Shown here: positions 4,700 to 35,848 of the stretch, piece after piece | Numbering within the stretch: the first letter of the stretch is position 1 | Layout of the letters: each line of letters opens with the position of its first letter | DNA from: a virus | Taxonomy: Duplodnaviria > Caudoviricetes | Strand: one strand, 5' to 3' | IMG/VR virus record: IMGVR_UViG_3300025387_000004 | Location: 1 to 56,088 of that record | Length of the DNA: 56,088 bases | The notes under the pieces: generated by a model | The model's input: the letters and a program-made list of their open reading frames with translations, nothing else | Databases searched by the model: none | Told to the model about the DNA's origin: nothing | Program-made: the position numbers and the translations under genes

Positions 4700-5179
4700 A
4701 TGTATAAGAAAATAAACCAACACTGTGGTGAAACGAAAATATGCTCAGTTGATGGATGTAACTCCCCTATCAGGGGAAAGGGTTTGTGTTTAGTTCATTA
4801 TTTCAGAGATAGGCGCAAACAAAAAGCCGCAGCTAAAAAAGCCAAAATGCCGAACATAGAAAAGCAACTTTATGAACAAGCTGTAAAAGAGGCTGTGCAA
4901 GAAGCTGTAAAGCGCGTTTTTCTTACGGAATATCCCGTCGGTAAATTAAGGAGTAGAATATCTACGGGAAAATACAAAATGATTTCAATTCCCGAACACA
5001 GACTTGTTGCTGAGAGAGCTTTGGGAAAAGCATTACCTCCGGGAAGCATTGTCCATCATATCAATCTGAATAAACAAGATAATAGACAGTGTAATTTGGT
5101 AGTTTGTCCAAATAACGAATACCACATGCTCATTCATAAACTGCAAGATCATTATAATTACTACGGAACACAACCGTAG
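4700..5179 (+). CDS. Free-standing HNH homing endonuclease
   Basis: CSVDGC...GLCLVHY zinc motif; EHRLVAE...VHHINLNKQDNRQCNL; AT-rich relative to flanks. Confidence 0.85.
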   Translation: MYKKINQHCGETKICSVDGCNSPIRGKGLCLVHYFRDRRKQKAAAKKAKMPNIEKQLYEQAVKEAVQEAVKRVFLTEYPVGKLRSRISTGKYKMISIPEHRLVAERALGKALPPGSIVHHINLNKQDNRQCNLVVCPNNEYHMLIHKLQDHYNYYGTQP

Positions 5180-5247
5180 TCACAAGTTTCCGCAGTCAAA
5201 TGCGGAAAACCGGCCCATCACTGGGTCTATTTTAATGGAGAAAATGT

Positions 5248-5685
5248 ATGTCAGTAAACTTCAAAGACCTCTTATCAACCAAACTCGATGACGTAAAAGC
5301 CCCTTCAGCATTACCCGAAGGCACTTATCATGGAACAATTTCATCCTTTGAATATGGAGACAACAATAAGAATAAGACGCCTTACGTTCGTTTCGCTCTT
5401 AAATTTCACTCAACCTCAGACGACGTAGATCCAAAGGACCTTGCAGACATCGACCTCGCGTCTCGCAAGCTCTCCACGGACTTCTACCTCACACCAGACG
5501 CCCGTTGGAGACTCAAGGAATTCCTTGTTTCTCTCGGCCTTAAAACCGACGGAGGTTCGTTCGACGAACTGATCCCAGAGGCAGTTGGACAGAGCGTGAT
5601 CGCGTATGTCACGCAGCGTTTCAATCCAGAGCGCCCTGACGATCCGCCACGCAACAACATCAAGTCGGTAAAAGGTGAGGCATAA
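5248..5685 (+). CDS. Putative single-stranded DNA-binding protein (DUF669-like)
   Basis: LPEGTYHGTI...KTPYV OB-fold-like pattern; follows Sak4-like ATPase; RBS GGAG. Confidence 0.65.
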   Translation: MSVNFKDLLSTKLDDVKAPSALPEGTYHGTISSFEYGDNNKNKTPYVRFALKFHSTSDDVDPKDLADIDLASRKLSTDFYLTPDARWRLKEFLVSLGLKTDGGSFDELIPEAVGQSVIAYVTQRFNPERPDDPPRNNIKSVKGEA

Positions 5686-5705
5686 GGCTTACGCCTATTA
5701 ATCAC

Positions 5706-5734
5706 AGAGGGGGCGAGGAGCCATTTGCCCCCTC
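5706..5734 (+). terminator. GC-rich hairpin after the SSB-like gene
   Basis: AGAGGGGGCGA/TTGCCCCCTCT stem; no U-tract. Confidence 0.4.
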
Positions 5735-5758
5735 TACCCACAAACTCAAAGGCCCAAC

Positions 5759-7192
5759 ATGACCAGCATTGCTCTCAAAGACATTTGGATTGATCGCGGC
5801 ACCCGCCAGCGCAAGGAAATCACCATTGATGATCTCCTCGAAAGCATCCCAAGACGTGGTGTGCTGGTCCCGATTATTGTGGTGGCCGAGCCCGGACCGG
5901 CAGAACAACCCTACAAACTAATCGCAGGTGAACGGCGCTACACGGCCAGCAGGAAGCTCGGCCTTCCCGACATCCCCGCAAGGCTCTTAACTGACCTCTC
6001 CCCCACAGAACAACGCATCGTGGAGCTTGAGGAAAATTTGCGCCGGAAGGATCTGGGTTGGCAGGACCAGTGTATCGCCATCGCCACGATCCACGATGTC
6101 CTTTCTCAGCAACATTCCGAGTCCGATTGGACCTACGCAAAGACTGCTGAAAACATCGGCTATGGTCAGGCATGGGTGCAAAGATGCTGCCGGATCGCAA
6201 AGGAACTCCACCGCGATAACGTCCGAACAATGGACACGGCAACGCGAGCCTACAATTTCCTGTCCCGTGAAGACGAGCGGGTGGCGGCTGATGCTGTTAG
6301 TAACATCCTGTCATCGGCGTCAAAAGCGGCCACCGACGCCTTCGACGGGGAAGGGGGGATCAATCCCCTTGACGATCTTTTGGACGCATCCACGGCCCCG
6401 GAAAAGCCCGCCAATGCGCCTTCAAAAAGCGCCCGCATTATCCCGCCCATCCTATCCCCGGAAACATCCATCCTTCAGCAATCTTTCCTCGACTGGGCCC
6501 CCTCTTATGACGGCGAACCCTTCAATCTAATCCACTGCGACTTCCCCTACGGCGTGAATGTTTTCGGGGGAAAGTGGTCAGGAAAACAAACGACATCTGG
6601 ATACCAGGATACAGCAGACATCTATGAAAAACTCATCACATGCTTATGCGAGAACCTCGATAACATCATGGCACATAGCGGGCATCTGGTGTTTTGGCTC
6701 TCAGGGGACATCACGATACAAGCTAAAACTTTACAGATGTTTGCCGACCTTGCCCCTCAACTGGCGTTCTGCAACTTCCCACTTGTCTGGGTCAAGAGTG
6801 ACAATGTTGGAATTGTGCCGGACCCCAAAAGGGAGCCCAGAAGGATTTACGAAACGGCACTGATCGCTTCCCGGGAAGACCGCCTTTTAGTCAAGCCCGT
6901 CAGCAACGCAATCTCTCACCCAACAAACAAGGAGCATCATCCACACACCAAACCAGAACCAGTGCTAAAACATTTCTTGTCAATGTTTGTGGACTCTAAC
7001 ACTCGCCTGTTAGACCCGACATGTGGTGGAGGCTCGGCCCTCCGCGTAGCTGAAGCCCTCGGAGCCGAACACGTTCTTGGCCTCGAGATCAACGACGAAT
7101 ACGTTGCGAACGCGAGAAGGGCGCTGCAGCATTTCCGTATTCACCAAAAAGCATCTTCAATTCAAAAGGAGCAAACAAATGAGCAATCCTAA
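5759..7192 (+). CDS. ParB N-terminal domain fused to a beta-class N4/N6 DNA methyltransferase
   Basis: LIAGERRY...EENLRRKDL (ParB); motif IV variant DFPY, HPHTKP, motif I variant LDPTCGGGS. Confidence 0.85.
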   Translation: MTSIALKDIWIDRGTRQRKEITIDDLLESIPRRGVLVPIIVVAEPGPAEQPYKLIAGERRYTASRKLGLPDIPARLLTDLSPTEQRIVELEENLRRKDLGWQDQCIAIATIHDVLSQQHSESDWTYAKTAENIGYGQAWVQRCCRIAKELHRDNVRTMDTATRAYNFLSREDERVAADAVSNILSSASKAATDAFDGEGGINPLDDLLDASTAPEKPANAPSKSARIIPPILSPETSILQQSFLDWAPSYDGEPFNLIHCDFPYGVNVFGGKWSGKQTTSGYQDTADIYEKLITCLCENLDNIMAHSGHLVFWLSGDITIQAKTLQMFADLAPQLAFCNFPLVWVKSDNVGIVPDPKREPRRIYETALIASREDRLLVKPVSNAISHPTNKEHHPHTKPEPVLKHFLSMFVDSNTRLLDPTCGGGSALRVAEALGAEHVLGLEINDEYVANARRALQHFRIHQKASSIQKEQTNEQS

Positions 7193-7622
7193 AATCGCAG
7201 ACAAACTCGATCTTGATCTTCTCGAAAACGCTTACATGAACATCAACGATACCGTCCCTCCACCATCTGCAAGGCCAAAGATTGTGACGACACAACAAGC
7301 ACCAGCAACCAACCCCCAACTCGAAATCATTGCTGAAGGCATGAAGCGCGCAGAGCAACTCTTTGCCTCAAAGAACTCGGAATACGGCGATAGCGGAGAC
7401 ATTCTAGGCAACTTCCGTCGCCTTGCAGAGCAGCAGGGTGTTCCGATGTCAACTGCATGGATGTTCCTTGCCGGAAAGCACATCGACTCAATCCAGCAAT
7501 ACGTGATCGACACTCGCAACAACACATCACGTCATCGCTCACAACCATTCTCCGAGCGCATCGATGATCTTGTTGTGTATAGCCTTTTGCTGTTGGTCAT
7601 CGCTGCTGAAGAAGGCGCATAA
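7179..7622 (+). CDS. DUF1599-like (nucleotide-modification-associated, MazG-like) protein
   Basis: KNSEYG...NF...KH...D.LVVY pattern; RBS AAGGAG. Confidence 0.6.
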   Translation: MSNPKIADKLDLDLLENAYMNINDTVPPPSARPKIVTTQQAPATNPQLEIIAEGMKRAEQLFASKNSEYGDSGDILGNFRRLAEQQGVPMSTAWMFLAGKHIDSIQQYVIDTRNNTSRHRSQPFSERIDDLVVYSLLLLVIAAEEGA

Positions 7623-8680
7623 TGTCATACTCCCCCACACTTCCATTCGCACATTCTTCTGGGCCCAAGGATGCAAAGATTGCAATTGTGGGGGAGGCAT
7701 GGGGCGAGCAAGAGGCACTAATCGGCAAGCCCTTCCAAGGTTATTCCGGGCAAGAGCTAACTCGCATGTTGCAAGAGGCAGGTCTTTCCAGACGTGACTG
7801 CTTTTTGACAAATGTTCTCGCCCTTCGCCCACCAAACAATGACCTTGCAGCATTATGTTGCAATAAAACTTCTTGCGGGGAGGGTTATGCCCTCCCCCAT
7901 CTGGGAAAAATCGGGCAATATCTAAAACCAGAATACCTTCCTGAGTTGGATCGGTTACGCGATGAACTTACCTCCGTGGCTCCAAACCTTATTATCGCTC
8001 TTGGTAGCACTGCTTGTTGGGCTTTGCTTTCTACTAATGGGATTGGCGCTTTACGAGGAACAGTTGCAACGTCAACTCTCGTTCCGCATAAGGTCCTCCC
8101 AACTTACCATCCCTCCGGGGTTTTACGGAACTGGGCATGGCGTCCTATCGCAATTGCCGATTTAATTAAGGCCAAGCGCGAAAGCGAATACCCTGAGATC
8201 AAACGCCCTTCCCGCAGAATTCTTGTCAACCCCACAATTGCTGAATGCCATGAGTGGATCGACCGCAACGTGCGCTCCGAATGTGCGTGTGACATCGAGA
8301 CAAAGTTCGGGATGATCGAGATGGTTGGCTTTAGCGCCAGCCCGACCGACGCCATGGTTGTGCCATTCTGGGACAAGAACAAGGGCGGAAACTACTGGCC
8401 GTCGGCGAACGTAGAAGGCGATGCTCGCAAGGTTGTCAAGCGCCTCCTGGAAAATCCGTCCATAACAAAAATCTTCCAAAACGGCCTTTATGACTTGCAG
8501 TATTTAATCAAAGAGGGTTATAGGCCAAGAGGCTGTCGTGAAGACACAATGCTTTATCACCACGCCCTCTACCCGGAAATGCAGAAAGGTCTAGGTTTTC
8601 TAGGCTCGATCTACACGTCAGAACCAGCATGGAAAACCATGCGGGGCAAGAAAATAACGGAGATGAAGAAGGATGATTAA
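7622..8680 (+). CDS. Uracil-DNA glycosylase-like domain plus N-terminal part of the PolA 3'-5' exonuclease (ExoI, ExoII)
   Basis: VGEAWG..E...GKPF.G.SG, TNV and YHPS (UDG family 4-like); DIET (ExoI); FQNGLYDL (ExoII); DTML. Confidence 0.85.
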   Translation: MSYSPTLPFAHSSGPKDAKIAIVGEAWGEQEALIGKPFQGYSGQELTRMLQEAGLSRRDCFLTNVLALRPPNNDLAALCCNKTSCGEGYALPHLGKIGQYLKPEYLPELDRLRDELTSVAPNLIIALGSTACWALLSTNGIGALRGTVATSTLVPHKVLPTYHPSGVLRNWAWRPIAIADLIKAKRESEYPEIKRPSRRILVNPTIAECHEWIDRNVRSECACDIETKFGMIEMVGFSASPTDAMVVPFWDKNKGGNYWPSANVEGDARKVVKRLLENPSITKIFQNGLYDLQYLIKEGYRPRGCREDTMLYHHALYPEMQKGLGFLGSIYTSEPAWKTMRGKKITEMKKDD

Positions 8681-8902
8681 ATGCAAAGCCGCAGACATTC
8701 TCTTTTCGAAGCCGTCATCAACACGGCCTCTGGTTTCGTAATTTCCCTTGTAGTTACAGAGTTCTTATTTCCCGTTTTCGACCTCCACCCATCCTTCGCA
8801 GCAAACTTTTACATCACCACAATCTTCACGATCATTAGCATAATCCGAAGTTACATCTGCCGAAGGATTTTCAATCACCTCCATATAAAAGGAGTTCTGT
8901 GA
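8681..8902 (+). CDS. Small two-TM membrane protein
   Basis: MQSRRHSLFEAVIN..G...IRSY..RRIFN pattern common in phages; hydrophobic segments. Confidence 0.8.
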   Translation: MQSRRHSLFEAVINTASGFVISLVVTEFLFPVFDLHPSFAANFYITTIFTIISIIRSYICRRIFNHLHIKGVL

Positions 8903-9018
8903 TGTTTGTTATTGCGACAATGGCCGCAGGGTCATTCATTTATTACATCTTGACAGGATATGAAGGCGCATTCATGGGCTGGCTTGCTCTCCTCTGCATC
9001 ATTTTAATGTTTGTATAA
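8902..9018 (+). CDS. 38-aa membrane peptide (MFVIATMAAGSFIYYILTGYEGAFMGWLALLCIILMFV)
   Basis: RBS AAGGAG; TGATG overlap; stops 2 nt before the pol ATG. Confidence 0.6.
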   Translation: MFVIATMAAGSFIYYILTGYEGAFMGWLALLCIILMFV

Positions 9019-9020
9019 TC

Positions 9021-10505
9021 ATGCCCATCATCGAAACCTCTATGCTGCAGGAAGGCGTGACCCTTCCAGAAAATGAACAAATCTATAACGGACTCGACTG
9101 TTGTATTACCCACGAAGTGCTTGAGGCCATACGTGGCCTTGGCGAAGCTCCAAAAATCTACAACTTCGCTCGTGCCTTACAGGCCCCTGTTCTCGACATG
9201 ATGCAGAGAGGATTTAAGATCGATGGATATGAAAGATCCAAAGGCATCGAAACACTCGAGAAAGAAATTGAGCGCCTTACGGGTTTGTTGGACCGTCTTG
9301 CAGATGCTGTTTGGGACAAGCCCCTTAAAGCAAACTCACCAAAGATGCTCCAAGAATTCTTCTTCACCCATATGCGAATTCCAGAAATCTGGACCTCAAA
9401 GAAAGGCGAGCGCAAGCTCTCAATGGACCGAGAGGCACTCGAAAAGCTCGACAACTACTATCATGCAAGGCCAATTGTTGCGACTATTCTGGCCATAAGA
9501 GACGCCGTTAAACAACTTTCAGTTCTTCGCACCGAGGTCGATCCAGATGGTAGAATGCGCACTTCATACAATGTTGCGGGCACAGAGACGGGGCGCTTTA
9601 GCAGTTCAACAAACGCTTTTGGCACTGGCACAAACCTACAAAACATCACCGCATCTCTCCGAAAAATGTTCATCGCAGATCCTGGGTATAAAATCTGCGG
9701 GATCGATCTGGAACAAGCTGAAAGCCGTGAAGTTGGATGGCTTTCTGGCATCATTTGCAATGACTGGTCTTACCTTGACGCCTGTTATAGTGGTGATCTC
9801 CATACCCTTGTTGCACAAACAGCTTGGCCTTCCCTCGGATGGGGCTCTGATCCGAAACGCAATCGCCAAATCGCTGACACACCGTTCTACCGAAACCTCA
9901 CCTACCGGGATATGGCAAAGAAACTCGGCCATGGAAGCAATTACCGAGGCCTTCCCCCGACCATGGCTCGACACGCAAAAATCCCCACCGCCACAGCCGA
10001 ACAATTCCAACGAGCCTATTTCGAGCGATTTGCGGGAATACCAAAGTGGCACCGATGGGTTGCTCAACAACTCCAAACAACCCACAGCATCACCACGCCC
10101 CTCGGACGCCAAAGAACATTCTTCGGCCGTGCGAACGACGACACGACGCTCCGGGAAGCGATTGCGTTCTCACCGCAGAGCGCGACGGCGGATAGGCTGA
10201 ACTTAGTCCTTTGGCGAATTTGGAATTACATGCCGCATGTCCAATTGTTAGCGCAGGTGCACGATGCAGCATATATCCAATTTCCAGAACATTTAGATGA
10301 ACAAGAAGTTGTAGCTGAAGCCCTTTCGCATTTCGATATTCCTATGGAAAGCTGTGGGCACAAATTAGTAGTTCCCGGCGAAGCTAAAATAGGCTGGAAT
10401 TGGGGCAATTATCATCCAGACACAAACCCAGATGGATTAAAGAAATGGAGCAAGGACAAGACAGACGCTCGCAAGAGAACTCCAATTTTGCAGCAAAAGT
10501 TGTGA
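9021..10505 (+). CDS. polA: Family A DNA polymerase (ExoIII plus polymerase domain)
   Basis: YNGLD (ExoIII), TETGRFSS, NLQN, motif A DLEQAESR, motif B RDMAKKLGHGSNY, motif C QVHDA. Confidence 0.92.
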   Translation: MPIIETSMLQEGVTLPENEQIYNGLDCCITHEVLEAIRGLGEAPKIYNFARALQAPVLDMMQRGFKIDGYERSKGIETLEKEIERLTGLLDRLADAVWDKPLKANSPKMLQEFFFTHMRIPEIWTSKKGERKLSMDREALEKLDNYYHARPIVATILAIRDAVKQLSVLRTEVDPDGRMRTSYNVAGTETGRFSSSTNAFGTGTNLQNITASLRKMFIADPGYKICGIDLEQAESREVGWLSGIICNDWSYLDACYSGDLHTLVAQTAWPSLGWGSDPKRNRQIADTPFYRNLTYRDMAKKLGHGSNYRGLPPTMARHAKIPTATAEQFQRAYFERFAGIPKWHRWVAQQLQTTHSITTPLGRQRTFFGRANDDTTLREAIAFSPQSATADRLNLVLWRIWNYMPHVQLLAQVHDAAYIQFPEHLDEQEVVAEALSHFDIPMESCGHKLVVPGEAKIGWNWGNYHPDTNPDGLKKWSKDKTDARKRTPILQQKL

Positions 10506-10984
10506 AGATAGATCAAGCCTATCTAAAGCATCACTTAATTTACAATCCAGAAACTGGCCAAGTCTTTAGAAAAAGATCTGGAAAATTAATCACGAGTATT
10601 CACAGTGGGGGGCATTTACAAATCAATTTGAATACAGGGGTTGTTAAATTATTGCACAGAGTGATCTGGTGCTACATGACAGGTAAGTGGCCTTCACAGC
10701 AAATAGATCATATAGATGGCAATCCAAAAAATAATAAGTGGAATAATTTAAGACTTGCTACAAATACTCAAAATTCTCGAAATAGTGCAAAGCCAATAAA
10801 CAACACATCTGGTTATAAAGGTGTGTCCTTTGTTGCTCGCTTAAACAAATACCGCGCAACAATAATGATTGATAGAAAAAGTCTCCATCTCGGATGTTTT
10901 TCTGATCCAAAAGACGCAGCGCAGGCATACAACGAAGCTGCCAAAAAATACTTCGGGGAATTTGCTCTCCTAAACAATATTTAA
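10502..10984 (+). CDS. HNH endonuclease with AP2 DNA-binding domain
   Basis: LHRVIW...IDHIDGNPKNNKWNNLR; NTSGYKGV...HLG.F...AA.AYN; GTGA overlap with the pol stop; AT-rich. Confidence 0.88.
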   Translation: MKIDQAYLKHHLIYNPETGQVFRKRSGKLITSIHSGGHLQINLNTGVVKLLHRVIWCYMTGKWPSQQIDHIDGNPKNNKWNNLRLATNTQNSRNSAKPINNTSGYKGVSFVARLNKYRATIMIDRKSLHLGCFSDPKDAAQAYNEAAKKYFGEFALLNNI

Positions 10985-10999
10985 GAGGGATCTGGGGCC

Positions 11000-12187
11000 G
11001 TGGATTTTGTAGATCAATTTGTAAAGTTTACTGAAGAACGCCCTTCCCCGGAAATTTTCCGTAAGTGGGCCGCAATCACAACGCTATCAGGTGCGCTCGA
11101 AAAGCGCGTCTGGACGATGACAAAAGCAGGTCCACAGTTCGCAAATCTCTACGTGATGCTTGTGGCCCCTCCGGGTGTGGGCAAATCACAGGCGATCAAT
11201 CCTGCAGAGCAGTTGCTGAAGTCCACAAAGAAATACAACATCGCACCAAACAGCGTGACCGCTGCAAGCTTCATTGATGCACTTGTCAAGGCGCATAGGA
11301 CTGTGCTTCTCCCTGACAACAAACTTCTACAATACCATCACATCTTTGTGTTCGCTGCAGAACTCGGAGTCTTTCTCAACACTCACGATCTAAACTTTCT
11401 TTCGATCATTAATGAATTGTTCGATCATAAAGACTCCTACCGGGAAGAACGCAGACATTCGCTCAAAGATCCCATCGACATTCCAAAGCCCATGACAACT
11501 CTCCTTGTGGGATCACAGCCGGGATTTCTTGCCACCTTGCTCCCCGACGCTGCATGGACGATGGGTTGGACCTCACGGATGTTAATGGTGTATTCGTCCA
11601 CTGCCCCCGATGTTCCGCTCTTTGGTGAATACAAAAACCAAGACAAGATCATGTCGGGACTTGTAAAGAAGCTCGATGAAGTCGCAGACTATTATGGTGA
11701 AATGAAATGGGATCAATCCGCGATTGCGGAGATGGAACGCTGGCGTAAAGACAAATGGGCCCCGGTTCCTGACCACCCAAAACTCGCAAACTATCTTCCA
11801 CGTCGCGGGACGATCTTCATGGTCAAGCTCGCAATGGTCGCCGCAATGTCAAGAGGTGAGACGCTTGCCATTAGGTTGCAGGATGTCGAGAGGGCAAGAG
11901 GTTGGTTGTTAGAAATTGAGAGTCTCATGCCTTGCATTTTCCGCGACATGATTATGCGCTCCGACGATCAAGTTATCGAAGAAGTCTTCCAGTATTCTTT
12001 CGAGATATATTTAAAGCACCGGACGCCGCTTGCATCCGCTCAGATCCTGCGCTTTTTAGCTCAACGCACTCCCGCCGAAAAGGCCGAACGGATTTTGTCT
12101 TTGATGGAAAAGTCTGGGATTTTTGAGCGTGTGGCGGGCACGGAAACTTACATTCCTCGCGCCCGCAATATGCACGGATTAGCATAA
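11000..12187 (+). CDS. AAA+ replicative helicase-like protein (DUF3987/YfjI-like), no primase domain
   Basis: NLYVMLVAPPGVGKS Walker A; FAAELG Walker B-like; GWTSR. Confidence 0.7.
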   Translation: MDFVDQFVKFTEERPSPEIFRKWAAITTLSGALEKRVWTMTKAGPQFANLYVMLVAPPGVGKSQAINPAEQLLKSTKKYNIAPNSVTAASFIDALVKAHRTVLLPDNKLLQYHHIFVFAAELGVFLNTHDLNFLSIINELFDHKDSYREERRHSLKDPIDIPKPMTTLLVGSQPGFLATLLPDAAWTMGWTSRMLMVYSSTAPDVPLFGEYKNQDKIMSGLVKKLDEVADYYGEMKWDQSAIAEMERWRKDKWAPVPDHPKLANYLPRRGTIFMVKLAMVAAMSRGETLAIRLQDVERARGWLLEIESLMPCIFRDMIMRSDDQVIEEVFQYSFEIYLKHRTPLASAQILRFLAQRTPAEKAERILSLMEKSGIFERVAGTETYIPRARNMHGLA

Positions 12188-33589: not shown

Positions 33590-35848
33590 TCAAGCTGCTT
33601 CCATCGCTTTAAGGTTCCCTTGCAACCGCCCGTCTTCTGGCGCAAGGGCAATGGCATTTTTAACATGCTTCACAGCTTCTGCATTTAGACCCATGTTAAA
33701 GGCTGCAATACTTGCCAAATCATGCGGAAGCGCCCCCCAGCAAACCGGATCACAAGTGTAAACAGGCTCCCGATATGTAATCGCCAAGGCTCGAAGCGCC
33801 GCCGCATAACAATCTGCCCAGCGTCCCTGCCGATAGAACATGTTCGCCAATTCCACCCAAGGCTCACGGGTTGTCGGAGCTTCTGCACATGCCCGATGGA
33901 AATAACCTTCGGCCTCGACAATTTGCCCTTTCGCTTCATAACATTTTGCCATCACCCGGAAAGCATAGCAGCGTTCATGGTGCCAAACGGAATTCGGAAG
34001 GGCTAAATACCGATTGCACTCGGTAATGCTTTCGTCGTGTCGGCCATGAAAGTGCAGTTCACGGGCATAGTAAAACGCATTTCTTGTGCAATGGGGGTCT
34101 TCCTTAACCGAAAGCGCCAAGAGGTCCAAATACTGCCCGCGAGATTTGTGCGGATCTGCATGATGGGAGACAAGAAGTTTGTCCGTGTGCGCCCAGACCT
34201 CCGGCACTCTCGCATCCGGCATAGGGTATTCATGGCACGGGTGGTGCCAATGGTAGCCATGGCGAGCATGGATCTTTTCATAAAGGAATTGATGCCCTCC
34301 GCCCCAATCATACATATATCGCAAGCGCGTGGTGTTTGGCTCCCAAACTCTCTCAATTTCCTCTCGCCATCCGGGCTCTAAAACCTCATCCAGATCCAGA
34401 CTTACACAAATGTCCACATCCTTCGGAACAAGCGCCAACGCCGCATCTCTTGCATGGTCAAAGCGCCATGGGGTGATACAAATCTCATGCACATCTGCAC
34501 CACAATCCCATGCAGTTTCAACCGTTTCATCTGTGCTTCCGGTATCTGCGATCAGCACTAAATCCGCATCTCGCGCACTTTCGCAGAACCTTTGGACAAA
34601 TTGTTCTTCATTCTTACTAATCGCATACACGCAGATTTTGGGTTTCTTTTTAGGCAGGGGCTCAGCCGGATGTTCCGGCCCAAACCATCTTTCAGCGTAA
34701 TCTGGGCGATTTGCCCTCAACCACCCGACAGCCTCTCCATTTAGTGTGGCGAACTCCTGCCCGACCGTCTGCGAGCCCACATGGTGAATATAGGACTTTG
34801 AAATAAAATGCTTAAAGCCCTTTTTACCCATATCCAGACAAATCACATCATCTGAATACCAATTTAGAGGCGGAAACTGGGCTTCTTGAAAAGCGTCTTT
34901 ATGCAGCCAAGCAAACAACGGAGCCACAATATCTGACTCCCTCGCCTGCAACTCCCAATCCCACTTATTATAATACGGGCTTAAAGTGTTGTGGGCACCA
35001 TTTTGATACCGCACGTTCTGTCTATGCGCTGCGGAGTCCGAATGTGCCGCCACAAATCCAACCTTTCGGCCATGCTCTGTGCGCTGAACTTCCACATCTT
35101 CAAGGAGATTTTTATAAGACCACGGAGTTAAAACAATATCATCATTCGCAACAATCACTTCATCATATTCTTCGAAAACTTTTTGAAGCGCAGCATTATA
35201 GGCTTGCCCGAAAGTCGATTTTTCGCCCTCAAACACAATTAGTTTTGTGTCCGGGACATAGCGATCAACACTTGCTTTCAGCACTGGCACACACTTACCA
35301 TTCACTGTGCAGACCACAATCGGCACAGCCTTTGGCTTGAACCAATACCAAACGTCATTGTTAGTTTGTAGGATCGTCGCACCGACTGACGACGCAAATT
35401 CATTAACCGCTCTATTCACCCCTTCAATCACGTTGTAATCGTGACCAGCAAAAAGGCCCCCATCTTTAATTTTTGGGTAAAAGTTTTGGCAGTCCTTTAG
35501 AACTTGTTCGTAAGTGTGCAGCCCATCGATAAAAATAAAATCACAAGAGGCATCTTCGATTTTGCCCGCAGCTTCATCTGAAAACATTCTGTGATGTGTG
35601 ATTTTCTTTTGAAAATCTGCAGTATTCTGCAGAAATTCCTTATAAGTTCCGCCTTGTGCATTTGAAGTAAGTTCGTGCCCGTTCCAATCCACATAATCTG
35701 GATAAGGATCGATGCCGTGAAGTGTCAGCCCTTCAACATTTTCAAACAAATGTTTTGTGGTATGACCAGCACTTAGCCCAATTTCAATACCCGTAGGCTT
35801 ATTAAATCGTTGCAGTAATTTTGGTAGTCCGGCTCCAGATATAAACAT
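33590..35848 (-). CDS. Multidomain enzyme: SAM-dependent methyltransferase (Methyltransf_24-like) + GT2 + GT2 + TPR
   Basis: IEIG..G, GIDPY, FIFIDGLHTY, GHDY (MTase); AYN...ANDDI, YSDD, HHVGS (GT2); ICVYAISKNEE...DTGSTD...RFD.AR...LDLDE (GT2); C-terminal TPR-like helices. Confidence 0.85.
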   Translation of the reverse strand: MFISGAGLPKLLQRFNKPTGIEIGLSAGHTTKHLFENVEGLTLHGIDPYPDYVDWNGHELTSNAQGGTYKEFLQNTADFQKKITHHRMFSDEAAGKIEDASCDFIFIDGLHTYEQVLKDCQNFYPKIKDGGLFAGHDYNVIEGVNRAVNEFASSVGATILQTNNDVWYWFKPKAVPIVVCTVNGKCVPVLKASVDRYVPDTKLIVFEGEKSTFGQAYNAALQKVFEEYDEVIVANDDIVLTPWSYKNLLEDVEVQRTEHGRKVGFVAAHSDSAAHRQNVRYQNGAHNTLSPYYNKWDWELQARESDIVAPLFAWLHKDAFQEAQFPPLNWYSDDVICLDMGKKGFKHFISKSYIHHVGSQTVGQEFATLNGEAVGWLRANRPDYAERWFGPEHPAEPLPKKKPKICVYAISKNEEQFVQRFCESARDADLVLIADTGSTDETVETAWDCGADVHEICITPWRFDHARDAALALVPKDVDICVSLDLDEVLEPGWREEIERVWEPNTTRLRYMYDWGGGHQFLYEKIHARHGYHWHHPCHEYPMPDARVPEVWAHTDKLLVSHHADPHKSRGQYLDLLALSVKEDPHCTRNAFYYARELHFHGRHDESITECNRYLALPNSVWHHERCYAFRVMAKCYEAKGQIVEAEGYFHRACAEAPTTREPWVELANMFYRQGRWADCYAAALRALAITYREPVYTCDPVCWGALPHDLASIAAFNMGLNAEAVKHVKNAIALAPEDGRLQGNLKAMEAA

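Follow-up and report, generated by a model that had tools for sequence, protein, structure and literature searches.

How can a phage obtain a proofreading DNA polymerase from a gene that lies in two pieces, cut inside the proofreading domain itself? The question is raised by the caudovirus record IMGVR_UViG_3300025387_000004, which we analysed over its whole stretch of 56,088 nucleotides (hereafter, the window); it represents a complete 56-kb freshwater phage genome (CheckV estimate 100% complete, terminal repeats present). A sequence-only reading had placed a uracil-DNA glycosylase (UDG)-like domain with the ExoI and ExoII motifs at 7622-8680, and ExoIII with polymerase motifs A, B and C at 9021-10505; the open reading frames, Pfam matches and motifs bear out this layout and its coordinates. 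The features of the locus are:

7622..8680, + strand: proposed polymerase subunit 1 (N-half), 352 aa, a UDG-like domain and, after it, the portion of the 3'-5' exonuclease domain that contains ExoI and ExoII (ORF; Pfam UDG, DNA_pol_A_exo1)
7622..8197, + strand: UDG-like domain, aa 1-192, family-4-derived (structural alignment to 1UI1; phmmer to 1L9G)
7691..7705, + strand: UDG motif A, G24-E25-A-W-G28, catalytic Glu retained, Trp where Pro is usual (alignment)
8108..8116, + strand: UDG motif B, H163-P-S (alignment)
8291..8299, + strand: ExoI, D-I-E-T (D224, E226; translation, alignment)
8480..8494, + strand: ExoII, Q-N-G-L-Y-D (N287 to D291; translation, alignment)
8681..8902, + strand: cargo gene 1, a DUF7220 small membrane protein of 73 aa with two hydrophobic segments (Pfam PF23858, phrog_4276, hydropathy)
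8899..9018, + strand: cargo gene 2, a conserved hydrophobic micropeptide, 39 aa from GTG 8899 (ORF; homologues in relatives)
9021..10505, + strand: proposed polymerase subunit 2 (C-half), 494 aa, the ExoIII helix with thumb, palm and fingers (Pfam DNA_pol_A; phmmer to Taq large fragment)
9084..9098, + strand: ExoIII of the C-half, Y-N-G-L-D (Y22 to D26; translation, alignment)
9705..9707, + strand: polymerase motif A aspartate D229 (invariant alignment column)
10172..10505, + strand: replaced 3' tract of the polymerase gene, adjoining the HNH insertion (nucleotide identity in bins)
10260..10265, + strand: polymerase motif C, H414 and D415 (invariant alignment columns)
10502..10984, + strand: HNH-AP2 homing-endonuclease gene, likely start GTG 10502, overlapping the polymerase stop (Pfam HNH_3, phrog_99, PADLOC HEase)
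11000..12187, + strand: DUF3987 primase/helicase-like gene, syntenic downstream neighbour of the polymerase (Pfam DUF3987, phrog_14296)

The two halves match adjacent parts of a single PHROG profile (phrog_17, positions 475-798 for the N-half and 809-1254 for the C-half, of 1445) and align end to end with fused polymerases of 779-810 aa. The exonuclease is recognized by Pfam DNA_pol_A_exo1 at aa 267-329 of the N-half with 24.0 bits, barely above the cut-off of 23.6. On sequence, it is of the DnaQ-like (DEDDy) Pol I type, with its five residues distributed over both chains: D224, E226 and D291 on the N-half, and Y22 and D26 on the C-half. D224 and E226 are present in all 149 split and all 56 fused rows of the alignment, D291 in all 149 split rows, and Y22, G24 and D26 of ExoIII are invariant in 39 of 39 C-halves spanning 38-93% identity. 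This invariance on both sides of the cut speaks for a two-subunit enzyme and a proofreading site composed from both chains, and the paired halves are predicted to possess 3'-5' exonuclease activity.

The remainder of the C-half is a family A DNA polymerase (Pfam PF00476), with DNA_pol_A matched above cut-off at aa 78-462 (E 3.3e-35) and the Taq large fragment recovered by phmmer (E 2.1e-17). The motif A aspartate, the motif B residues R296 and K300, and both motif C residues are invariant among the 39 C-halves. The score against the NCBIfam DNA polymerase I equivalog PRK05755 falls below its cut-off (114.1 vs 720 bits). In the relative L086, motif B of the C-half is interrupted by an intein-like insert.

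The N-terminal module of the N-half is matched by Pfam UDG at aa 13-172 (E 1.5e-23) and by phmmer to 1L9G (E 3.2e-18), and its structural model (range 1-192) superposes on the Thermus thermophilus UDG 1UI1 with VIA-align Z 20.8 and an rmsd of 2.2 A over 162 aa. Motif A retains E25 in 143 of the 149 split N-halves, with Trp in 111 and Phe in 22 at the position occupied by Pro in 48 of 56 fused forms and, likewise, in the canonical family 4 enzymes. Motif B retains H163 in 146 of 149; it is the counterpart of H178 in the phiLo enzyme, described as experimentally active in the passages concerned (PMC13697223), so that the catalytic Glu and His here match those of an active enzyme. The fold, the motif A Glu and the motif B His-Pro-Ser are all those of family 4 UDGs. 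In that family, four cysteines bind a 4Fe-4S cluster. Among 70 N-halves, only C60 and C79 are nearly invariant, and no Cys lies in residues 1-12, the part that matches the beginning of the solved enzymes. With this four-cysteine set incomplete, we regard the domain as family-4-derived rather than as a canonical member; its score against NCBIfam UDG_fam4 (TIGR00758) is below the curated cut-off (94.5 vs 125.3 bits). UDG activity of the N-half may be predicted from two or three conserved residues, with Trp/Phe for Pro in motif A, and its most likely role would be to scan the template for uracil ahead of synthesis, a function shown for the phiLo and YerA41 polymerases.

The sequence-only reading had asked whether relatives show the same split point or a fused gene. 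The same point was found in all 71 IMG/VR loci holding both halves (49 distinct junctions; N-half identity 38-98%), always with the halves adjacent and in unchanged order; 7 more of the 78 IMG/VR loci end too near a contig edge to show the C-half. It recurs in 7 of 7 closer GTDB contigs (46-57% identity) and in genes 029 and 026 of the cultured Caulobacter phage Kuura. UDG and DNA_pol_A occur on one chain in 53 of 54 longer homologues, all at no more than 42% identity. Being common to IMG/VR, GTDB and Kuura relatives, the split is thus neither an artefact nor a private oddity of this genome. The loci were sought with peptide patterns taken from this protein, and of 2626 near-length matches the best 120 were covered; the sampling is thereby biased, and fused close relatives could exist outside it. 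In a 205-row tree, the split forms fall on one side of a branch with support 98, and IQ-TREE recovers a main split clade of 20 rows with support 100. One further form (L094), split at the same loop, groups with the fused forms at 96; a single origin is not rejected (p-AU 0.29). The new termini are themselves conserved, with K349 in 70 of 70 and D351 in 68 of 70 N-halves, and T6 in 38 of 39 C-halves.

Structural models place the cut in a loop. In the AlphaFold2 (AF2) model of a fused relative (P0127; pLDDT 94.0), the split point maps to a 19-residue coil (aa 302-320) directly preceding the ExoIII helix (aa 321-348), and the block 311-320 has a pLDDT of 70, the lowest besides the last residue. 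Residues 160-775 of the same model align as one unit to the Klenow fragment 1KFD (Z 31.3, rmsd 3.3 A, 525 aa). The N-half modelled alone (AF2, pLDDT 88.7) is confident to about aa 320, with a low-confidence tail from about aa 321, a result equally compatible with an independent protein. Its alignment with the phiLo polymerase 9QHS keeps the sequence order (Z 13.8, 254 aa), with the rmsd of 17.1 A indicating that the domains are placed differently.

The 340-nt gap had been proposed to hold two small transmembrane ORFs rather than intron-like sequence, and this holds up. It is wholly coding, with 0 nt from the N-half stop to the DUF7220 ATG, an overlap of 4 nt or 1 nt between DUF7220 and micropeptide genes, and 2 nt from the latter to the C-half ATG. 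The products are hydrophobic (GRAVY 0.75 for the 73-aa and 1.79 for the 39-aa protein), and no Rfam family matches within 7000-11500 at E up to 1. A single TAA stands between the N-half and DUF7220, whose reading frames coincide; the C-half frame differs from that of the N-half. The DUF7220 profile is matched with E 2.5e-26 (92.3 bits vs cut-off 28, profile positions 1-68 of 70). Pfam, PHROGs, NCBIfam and PADLOC assign the micropeptide to no family; homologues of 36-45 aa with a Y-Y-(I/V)-L-T-G motif follow DUF7220 in 11 of 12 relatives checked (L043 being without one). A start at ATG 8902, yielding 38 aa, agrees with the ATG starts of relatives and is more likely than GTG 8899.

Among the relatives, the gap varies between an overlap of stop and start codons and a length of 2762 nt, and accommodates DUF7220 (18 of 43 relatives with distinct gaps), HNH endonucleases or nucleotide-metabolism genes; in 12 loci, it measures 37 nt or less and the membrane peptides are absent. 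Since they are missing where the halves abut and the cargo is varied, we take the membrane peptides to be interchangeable cargo and not parts of the polymerase. The start codon of the following gene falls between -4 and +5 nt of the N-half stop in 38 of the 49 distinct junctions, and coupled translation from a single operon is the probable mode of expression of the two polymerase genes. At the DNA level, contigs from 4 public runs (4 studies) span both junctions without a listed indel from 8400 to 9200, and reveal no continuous gene; the best-holding of these runs may be the window's own assembly sample and thus not independent.

These observations favor, with a probability of roughly 0.8, a UDG-bearing family A replicase that was split by an old gene fission before the ExoIII helix and whose two chains reassemble, the junction having become a cargo slot. 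The ancestor would have been a single gene for a phage replicase, a family A polymerase with an N-terminal UDG domain, and the fission would have struck the proofreading domain in the loop that leads into its ExoIII helix. Subunit 1 would thereby comprise the UDG and the exonuclease core with ExoI and ExoII, and subunit 2 the ExoIII helix and the polymerase domain. Synthesized individually from a single operon, probably by coupled translation, they would associate physically as a heterodimer, regaining a Klenow-like enzyme with a 3'-5' exonuclease site contributed by both chains. The junction would then have served as a slot for selfish and accessory genes, here the DUF7220 protein and the micropeptide. 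We consider it rather doubtful, though conceivable, that the loop is a selectively maintained site of fission and cargo, with the two-subunit form useful in its own right and L094 split independently. In that case, the operon would offer a protected expression slot through which homing endonucleases shuttle membrane and nucleotide-metabolism genes between phages, and the subunit ratio could set the share of polymerase equipped with proofreading and uracil scanning.

Against the two-subunit enzyme stands the improbable alternative that the halves no longer cooperate, subunit 1 being a free-standing UDG with a relic exonuclease and subunit 2 a proofreading-deficient polymerase. The N-half does fold confidently alone to about aa 320, and exonuclease-truncated family A polymerases exist, with CCPol described as retaining three exonuclease helices (PMC10201439). 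A relic would, however, be expected to drift, yet ExoI and ExoII persist in every one of the 149 N-halves and ExoIII in every C-half despite their divergence, and the genes have stayed adjacent in constant order throughout the 71 loci. Assembly error or a decaying pseudogene is barely credible: a single stop codon could arise from sequencing error, but 49 distinct junction sequences from 71 contigs are all split alike, contigs from four studies bridge the junction, the genome is complete with terminal repeats, and the catalytic residues are intact.

Phage polymerase genes often contain introns and inteins, the motif B insert of L086 resembles an intein, and the N-half is one TAA away from DUF7220 in the same frame, all of which would suit restoration of a single polypeptide by a self-splicing intron, split intein, frameshift, stop-codon readthrough or ribosome bypass. 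Nevertheless, we deem such restoration very improbable: Rfam detects no group I or II intron in the region, Pfam finds no intein or Hint domain in either half, and the stretches outside the homologous regions, a tail of 14 aa and a head of 21 aa, fall short of the length of intein halves. Further, the gap is filled by conserved protein genes, with cargo up to 2762 nt that includes enzymes; the C-half frame of the window differs from that of the N-half; where the halves abut, the frame of the C-half is closed by a stop 3-6 nt upstream of its ATG; and the 12 loci with the shortest gaps, some with overlapping stop/start codons, leave no room for splicing. A working partnership between the membrane peptides and the polymerase, such as anchoring of the replisome at the membrane, would explain why they lie between the halves and is in keeping with the DUF7220-micropeptide cassette in 17 of the 18 gaps holding DUF7220, and with DUF7220 homologues lying just upstream of a fused polymerase gene in MW202489 (L003) and about 0.7 kb upstream of another (L093). 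We nonetheless think this quite unlikely, as the cassette is missing from 25 of 43 relatives with distinct gaps and from all 12 near-abutting loci, unrelated genes occupy the slot elsewhere, and no annotated polymerase gene lies within 3.5 kb, in either direction, of the DUF7220 homologues of Polaribacter phage Freya and Xanthomonas phage Mallos. Thus, the common split point, fused forms found only at a distance, the lack of an intron or intein signal and the invariant Exo residues on both sides jointly support the two-polypeptide polymerase put forward by the sequence-only reading.

Both split family A polymerases and UDG-polymerase fusions are already published; we did not find in print a split between ExoII and ExoIII, or the cargo slot. 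In the S-SBP1-like T7-like cyanophages, as described by Czernecki et al. (2023, PMC10201439), gene fission has likewise yielded two adjacent genes for one family A polymerase, and the authors' AlphaFold2 model has the parts reassembling with solvent-exposed new termini. By that description, the whole exonuclease domain is cut from the polymerase domain, with no UDG and with genes overlapping without cargo, whereas the phage studied here is cut between ExoII and ExoIII, has a UDG and carries variable junction cargo. The LUZ24-like phages encode a "DNA polymerase exonuclease subunit" (gp25) and a "DNA polymerase part II" (gp34) with some 2.3 kb of small genes between them, membrane proteins and an endonuclease among these (NC_010325; PMC3890496); the UFV-P2 paper terms the two parts exons, with no evidence given in the passages concerned (PMC3890496). 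LUZ24 gp25 (169 aa) contains ExoI, ExoII and ExoIII together and lacks a UDG domain, so its cut lies at a domain boundary. A split of this exonuclease/polymerase boundary type, S-SBP1-like or LUZ24-like, does not apply here, as ExoIII is on the polymerase chain.

The UDG-fused PolA enzymes of N4-like (cluster 17), SPO1-like and SP15-like (phiLo/YerA41) phages share the order of N-terminal family-4-type UDG, exonuclease and polymerase, but are described as single chains (PMC10201439; PMC13697223). The catalytic Glu and His are retained here as in the SPO1-like and SP15-like enzymes, and the latter reach 1100-1300 aa with extra inserts, vs 846 aa for both halves here (PMC10201439; PMC13697223). 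The N4-like type, in which the UDG catalytic residues are lost, was rejected on the retained Glu/His and on BLASTP against N4 gp39 (N-half not significant; C-half 22% identity, E 5e-12). The relevant passages of a review (PMC2988022) describe comparable genes in pieces that homing endonucleases have created or occupy: nrdA of Aeh1, with mobE, and the 43A/43B gene of Aeromonas phages 25 and 44RR. There, an essential replication enzyme consists of two reassembling polypeptides, and some relatives carry an HNH or seg endonuclease gene at the split while others lack it. Those are a ribonucleotide reductase and a family B polymerase, whereas here a family A enzyme is split and the slot also takes non-nuclease cargo. 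The MEP401-type OM43 phages (PMC10580990) and Vibrio phage vB_VspS_VS-ABTNL-3, the latter with a UDG-like N-terminus, also have two polymerase ORFs with a small ORF between, but are cut within the DNA_pol_A domain rather than before ExoIII. A cultured parallel is Kuura (OQ067476), in the same split clade, with genes 029, 028, 027 and 026 forming the halves (44% and 42% identity) and two small gap genes. Its gap genes are unrelated to DUF7220, and Asp replaces Glu in its UDG motif A. Gene 029 carries the label "hypothetical protein", and the Kuura paper, in the passages concerned, speaks only of a DNA polymerase (PMC9959647).

This layout would constitute a natural and widespread case of a family A polymerase whose proofreading active site is shared by two polypeptides; the same two genes and gap slot occur across a large group of uncultured phages. 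For enzymologists, the split point before ExoIII is a ready-made engineering site, and it lets one ask whether proofreading and uracil scanning can be dosed apart from synthesis; with Kuura in culture, the two-subunit idea is directly testable. One defined loop of an essential gene is, moreover, a hot spot gathering homing endonucleases and accessory genes, and such a slot informs gene flow among phages. The annotation is also corrected, as the N-half is labelled "uracil-DNA glycosylase" or "hypothetical protein" in source names.

A homing-endonuclease gene also adjoins the 3' end of the polymerase gene. The HNH gene (ORF open from 10400) matches HNH_3 with E 1.1e-17 (63.9 bits vs cut-off 24.8) and phrog_99 with E 6e-63, its AP2 domain being under cut-off (23.3 vs 33.3); as with homing endonucleases, it is absent at the site in 4 of 4 close relatives aligned (L004, L007, L008, L036). 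The tract 10172..10505 has 61-67% nucleotide identity to L008 and L036, vs 83-100% in the other aligned 150-nt bins. The DUF3987 gene beyond it is found downstream of the C-half in relatives as well.

The division of the UDG-fused family A polymerase of this phage into two genes is real, and the arrangement is not peculiar to this genome, being widespread in uncultured phages of freshwater and soil. At 56,088 bp, the window is a complete virus record; it has direct terminal repeats, and CheckV puts its completeness at 100%. Its plus strand bears a replication module, with genes for a helicase, an exonuclease, a Sak4-like protein, an HNH protein, a DUF669 protein, a ParB-methylase, the polymerase, a second HNH protein and a DUF3987 primase-like protein, and its minus strand a structural module featuring the terminase, portal, major head protein and tail fibres. 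We found no nucleotide similarity of the window to GenBank phages, and among the 24 sequencing runs listed as containing its sequence, none was an RNA run. The ORF translations match exactly the coordinates proposed for the polymerase locus in the sequence-only reading:

Open reading frames of the polymerase locus (window positions)
7622-8680, plus strand: N-half of the polymerase, 352 aa, with the Pfam domains UDG and DNA_pol_A_exo1
8681-8902, plus strand: DUF7220 protein, 73 aa, with the Pfam domain DUF7220
8899-9018, plus strand: micropeptide, 39 aa, with no Pfam family
9021-10505, plus strand: C-half of the polymerase, 494 aa, with the Pfam domain DNA_pol_A

The exonuclease and polymerase motifs assigned in that reading are likewise visible in the translations, with ExoI and ExoII on the N-half and ExoIII at residues 22-26 of the C-half. 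The two halves match neighbouring stretches of one PHROG profile (phrog_17, positions 475-798 and 809-1254, respectively). Neither the N-half nor the small proteins matched a defence family in PADLOC, and all NCBIfam matches score under their cut-offs.

A comparison with relatives, proposed earlier as a means of distinguishing a shared split point from a fused gene, came out in favor of the former. Of 78 IMG/VR loci recovered via the N-half, 71 contain both halves, and all 71 are split at the same point as the window, with none fused; the remaining seven end within about 0.9 kb past the N-half. The split is also seen in 7/7 contigs of the GTDB collection at 46-57% identity and in Caulobacter phage Kuura, the nearest cultured phage, where the break falls at the identical alignment position. 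Here, the order is a 369-aa "hypothetical protein" (44% to the N-half), two small unrelated genes and a 560-aa "DNA polymerase" (42% to the C-half). Near-length matches in the protein database number 2626, and the best 120 of them span 260-373 aa in length and 54-90% identity to the N-half. The longer matches, all at 42% identity or less, combine UDG and DNA_pol_A on one chain in 53 of 54 cases. Single fused genes are found in Microcystis phage Mel-JY34 (810 aa) and the uncultured phage MW202489 (779 aa), both with a linker of ~20 residues between a conserved Trp-Lys and the ExoIII Tyr. With respect to annotation, the "hypothetical protein" Kuura_029 is a UDG + ExoI/II polymerase subunit, and several protein-database source names call the N-half a "uracil-DNA glycosylase". 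Two further loci depart from the usual form. One of them, a split-type polymerase locus close to the end of a 4.7-Mb Actinomycetota MAG contig (L092), has an N-half broken by frame changes; possible explanations are a prophage, a mis-join or long-read errors. Vibrio phage vB_VspS_VS-ABTNL-3 (MF497422) codes for a member of the broad UDG-polymerase family cut inside the polymerase domain, with the parts separated by a 184-aa hypothetical gene.

In the split forms, every residue of the DEDDy exonuclease is retained, spread over both chains: D224, E226 and D291 are kept in 149/149 N-halves, and Y22, G24 and D26 in 39/39 C-halves, over a range of 38-93% identity. The invariance of ExoIII on a polymerase-only chain would be expected if the chains meet; otherwise, there is no reason for it. 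This comparative evidence supports the principal proposal of the sequence-only reading, namely a two-part PolA whose proofreading site would be assembled from both halves. In an AF2 model of the fused relative P0127 (pLDDT 94.0, pTM 0.91), the split point falls in a 19-residue coil (aa 302-320), with the block 311-320 showing the lowest pLDDT (70) apart from the last residue, and a long ExoIII helix (aa 321-348) is predicted directly after this coil. Residues 160-775 of the model superpose as a single unit on Klenow-type large fragments (1KFD: Z 31.3, rmsd 3.3 Å, 525 aa), and the fused-family profile matches Klenow with E 1e-83, aligning the linker opposite the stretch preceding Tyr497. The N-half modelled alone (pLDDT 88.7) is confident to about residue 320, with the last 30 residues loose. 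The new termini feature conserved residues, with Lys349 present in 70/70, Asp351 in 68/70 and Thr6 of the C-half in 38/39 sequences.

We considered several ways in which the halves might instead be rejoined or the break be spurious. An intron was discounted, as had been suggested earlier from the character of the gap: no Rfam family matches the region and the gap is coding. For an intein, no intein domain was found and the termini are too short. Frameshifting, readthrough or bypass is excluded by the frames and stop codons, with the C-half of the window lying in a different frame and the abutting junctions displaying a stop in the C-half frame just before the C-half ATG. Taken together, these observations make splicing, trans-splicing or recoding very unlikely. 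An assembly artefact is contradicted by the 49 distinct junction sequences among the 71 two-half loci and by DNA reads, which had been named as a place where a continuous gene might surface: contigs from four public freshwater or lake DNA runs span both window junctions without indels, keeping the split intact.

The next gene starts -4 to +5 nt from the N-half stop in 38 of the 49 distinct junctions. Between 5000 and 12400, we detected no signal of promoters (6 sites against 7.3 expected from shuffles) or terminators (7 against 9.2). The close gene starts and the lack of any such excess fit a single operon, from which both halves would be expressed with translational coupling. The conserved last codons contain a Shine-Dalgarno-like match in 44/49 junctions; since this pattern is lenient and lacks a control, such a role for them is only suggestive.

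A FastTree built from the N-terminal regions of 149 split and 56 fused forms placed the split forms on one side of a branch, implying a single change (support 98), and in IQ-TREE the main split clade, represented by 20 sampled rows including Kuura, had a support of 100. A complication comes from L094 (locus 4947-7887 of a 44.5-kb contig binned as Pseudomonadota), which at 34% identity is split at the same loop and has two small ORFs in its gap. It groups with fused forms (IQ-TREE support 96), giving two changes on the trees, and hence may represent a second, independent fission; under an AU test, a tree uniting it with all other split forms in one clade was not rejected (p 0.293). Thus, the loop was broken by at least one old fission and perhaps by another.

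The interval between the halves is highly variable, ranging across the 71 IMG/VR loci from overlapping codons up to 2762 nt (median 344 nt), with 12 loci having a gap of 37 nt or less, overlaps included. Repeats around it in the window amount to short matches such as chance alone would produce. A Pfam search with 146 gap ORFs, taken from 43 loci whose gaps are distinct, recovered DUF7220 in 18 of these loci, DUF7768 in 8, an HNH_3 endonuclease in 7 (one weak), DUF1937/DUF4406 in 5, and MazG, a dCMP deaminase, an AAA ATPase and an FkbM methyltransferase in one each; many of the ORFs matched no Pfam family. Even among close relatives, an HNH-type gene lies between the N-half and DUF7220 in L004, L006, L007 and L035 and is absent in L008 and L036. 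Similarly, a single contig of one public DNA sequencing run (X1) departs from the window at 8662 and returns at 8711, skipping 48 nt at the first junction of the gap, and one of another (X2) skips 83 nt (9018-9102) at the second, which suggests co-existing variants differing in junction DNA.

Judging from its conservation, the micropeptide is a genuine gene: in 11 of 12 relatives examined, DUF7220 is followed by a homolog of 36-45 aa with a Tyr-Tyr-(Ile/Val)-Leu-Thr-Gly motif, with none in L043. DUF7220 homologs occur also in Polaribacter phages Freya and Danklef and Xanthomonas phage Mallos; in Freya and Mallos no polymerase-annotated gene lies within 3.5 kb on either side, and our literature search found no papers on this family. 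We therefore regard both membrane peptides as accessory, incidental cargo and not as parts of the polymerase. A link of these peptides to replication is a minor alternative, favored by the DUF7220 homologs that precede the fused polymerase gene, immediately in MW202489 and at a distance of about 0.7 kb in L093.

Mobile elements also lie beside or inside the polymerase. In the window region 10172-10984, an HNH-AP2 endonuclease gene is inserted after the polymerase stop, ahead of the DUF3987 gene; it is missing at this site in 4/4 close relatives aligned, and the adjacent last ~330 nt of the polymerase gene show 61-67% identity to these relatives, compared with 83-100% in the remaining 150-nt bins of the alignment, a pattern resembling a recombination or co-conversion tract linked to homing. 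Another HNH endonuclease gene (159 aa, window 4700-5179) lies between the Sak4-like and DUF669 genes. In L086 (7529-9889 of a 63.9-kb contig binned as Holophagaceae), the 786-aa C-half carries an intein-like insert of ~290 aa in polymerase motif B, pointing to a third kind of mobile element targeting the polymerase; the C-half span of L091 is similarly long.

Both split family A polymerases and UDG-polymerase fusions are known, the latter from N4-like, SPO1-like and SP15-like phages. A fission between exonuclease and polymerase was described in T7-like S-SBP1-type cyanophages as the first such case (PMC10201439), a split family A polymerase in an uncultured cyanophage lineage (bioRxiv 10.1101/325100), and a cut inside the polymerase domain in MEP401-type OM43 phages (PMC10580990). 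In LUZ24-like phages, small genes spanning about 2.3 kb separate an "exonuclease subunit" from a "part II", but LUZ24 gp25 carries all three Exo motifs on one protein; hence, its cut is at a domain border. Genes in pieces associated with homing endonucleases include nrdA and the family B gene 43 (PMC2988022). The passages of the Kuura paper naming the polymerase refer only to a DNA polymerase, and Nasko 2018 (PMC6302109) mentions neither split nor UDG. In a search covering few subscription journals, we found in print neither a UDG polymerase whose cut separates ExoII from ExoIII nor this pattern of a cargo slot. The cultured Kuura offers a system for testing heterodimer formation directly.

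Residues 1-192 of the N-half resemble family 4 UDGs (1UI1: Z 20.8, rmsd 2.2 Å, 162 aa; phmmer E 3e-18). Canonical members of that family have four Fe-S cysteines, which are absent from the N-half. Aligned as a whole, the N-half matches the N-terminal part of the phiLo polymerase in order (9QHS: Z 13.8, 254 aa), with an rmsd of 17.1 Å indicating that the domain orientation differs. The phiLo catalytic Glu and His, E53 and H178 (Missoury et al., PMC13697223), have counterparts in E25 and H163, which are kept in 143/149 and 146/149 split N-halves. The catalytic UDG residues are reported to be lost in the N4-like cluster (Czernecki et al., PMC10201439), and N4 gp39 has only remote similarity to the polymerase halves of the window. 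By analogy with phiLo and YerA41, the UDG domain probably reads ahead of synthesis for uracil in the template strand. UDG motif A (window 7691-7705) reads Gly-Glu-Ala-Trp/Phe-Gly in 133/149 split forms, whereas 48/56 fused forms, like family 4 UDGs, have Pro at the Trp/Phe position; this clade-specific change could alter base specificity. Elsewhere in the genome, a 752-aa protein (33590-35848, minus strand) pairs an N-terminal match to a DNA methyltransferase PHROG with a C-terminal match to a beta-1,4-glycosyltransferase PHROG (E 1e-103), and is of possible interest because thymidine is hypermodified in some UDG-polymerase phages.
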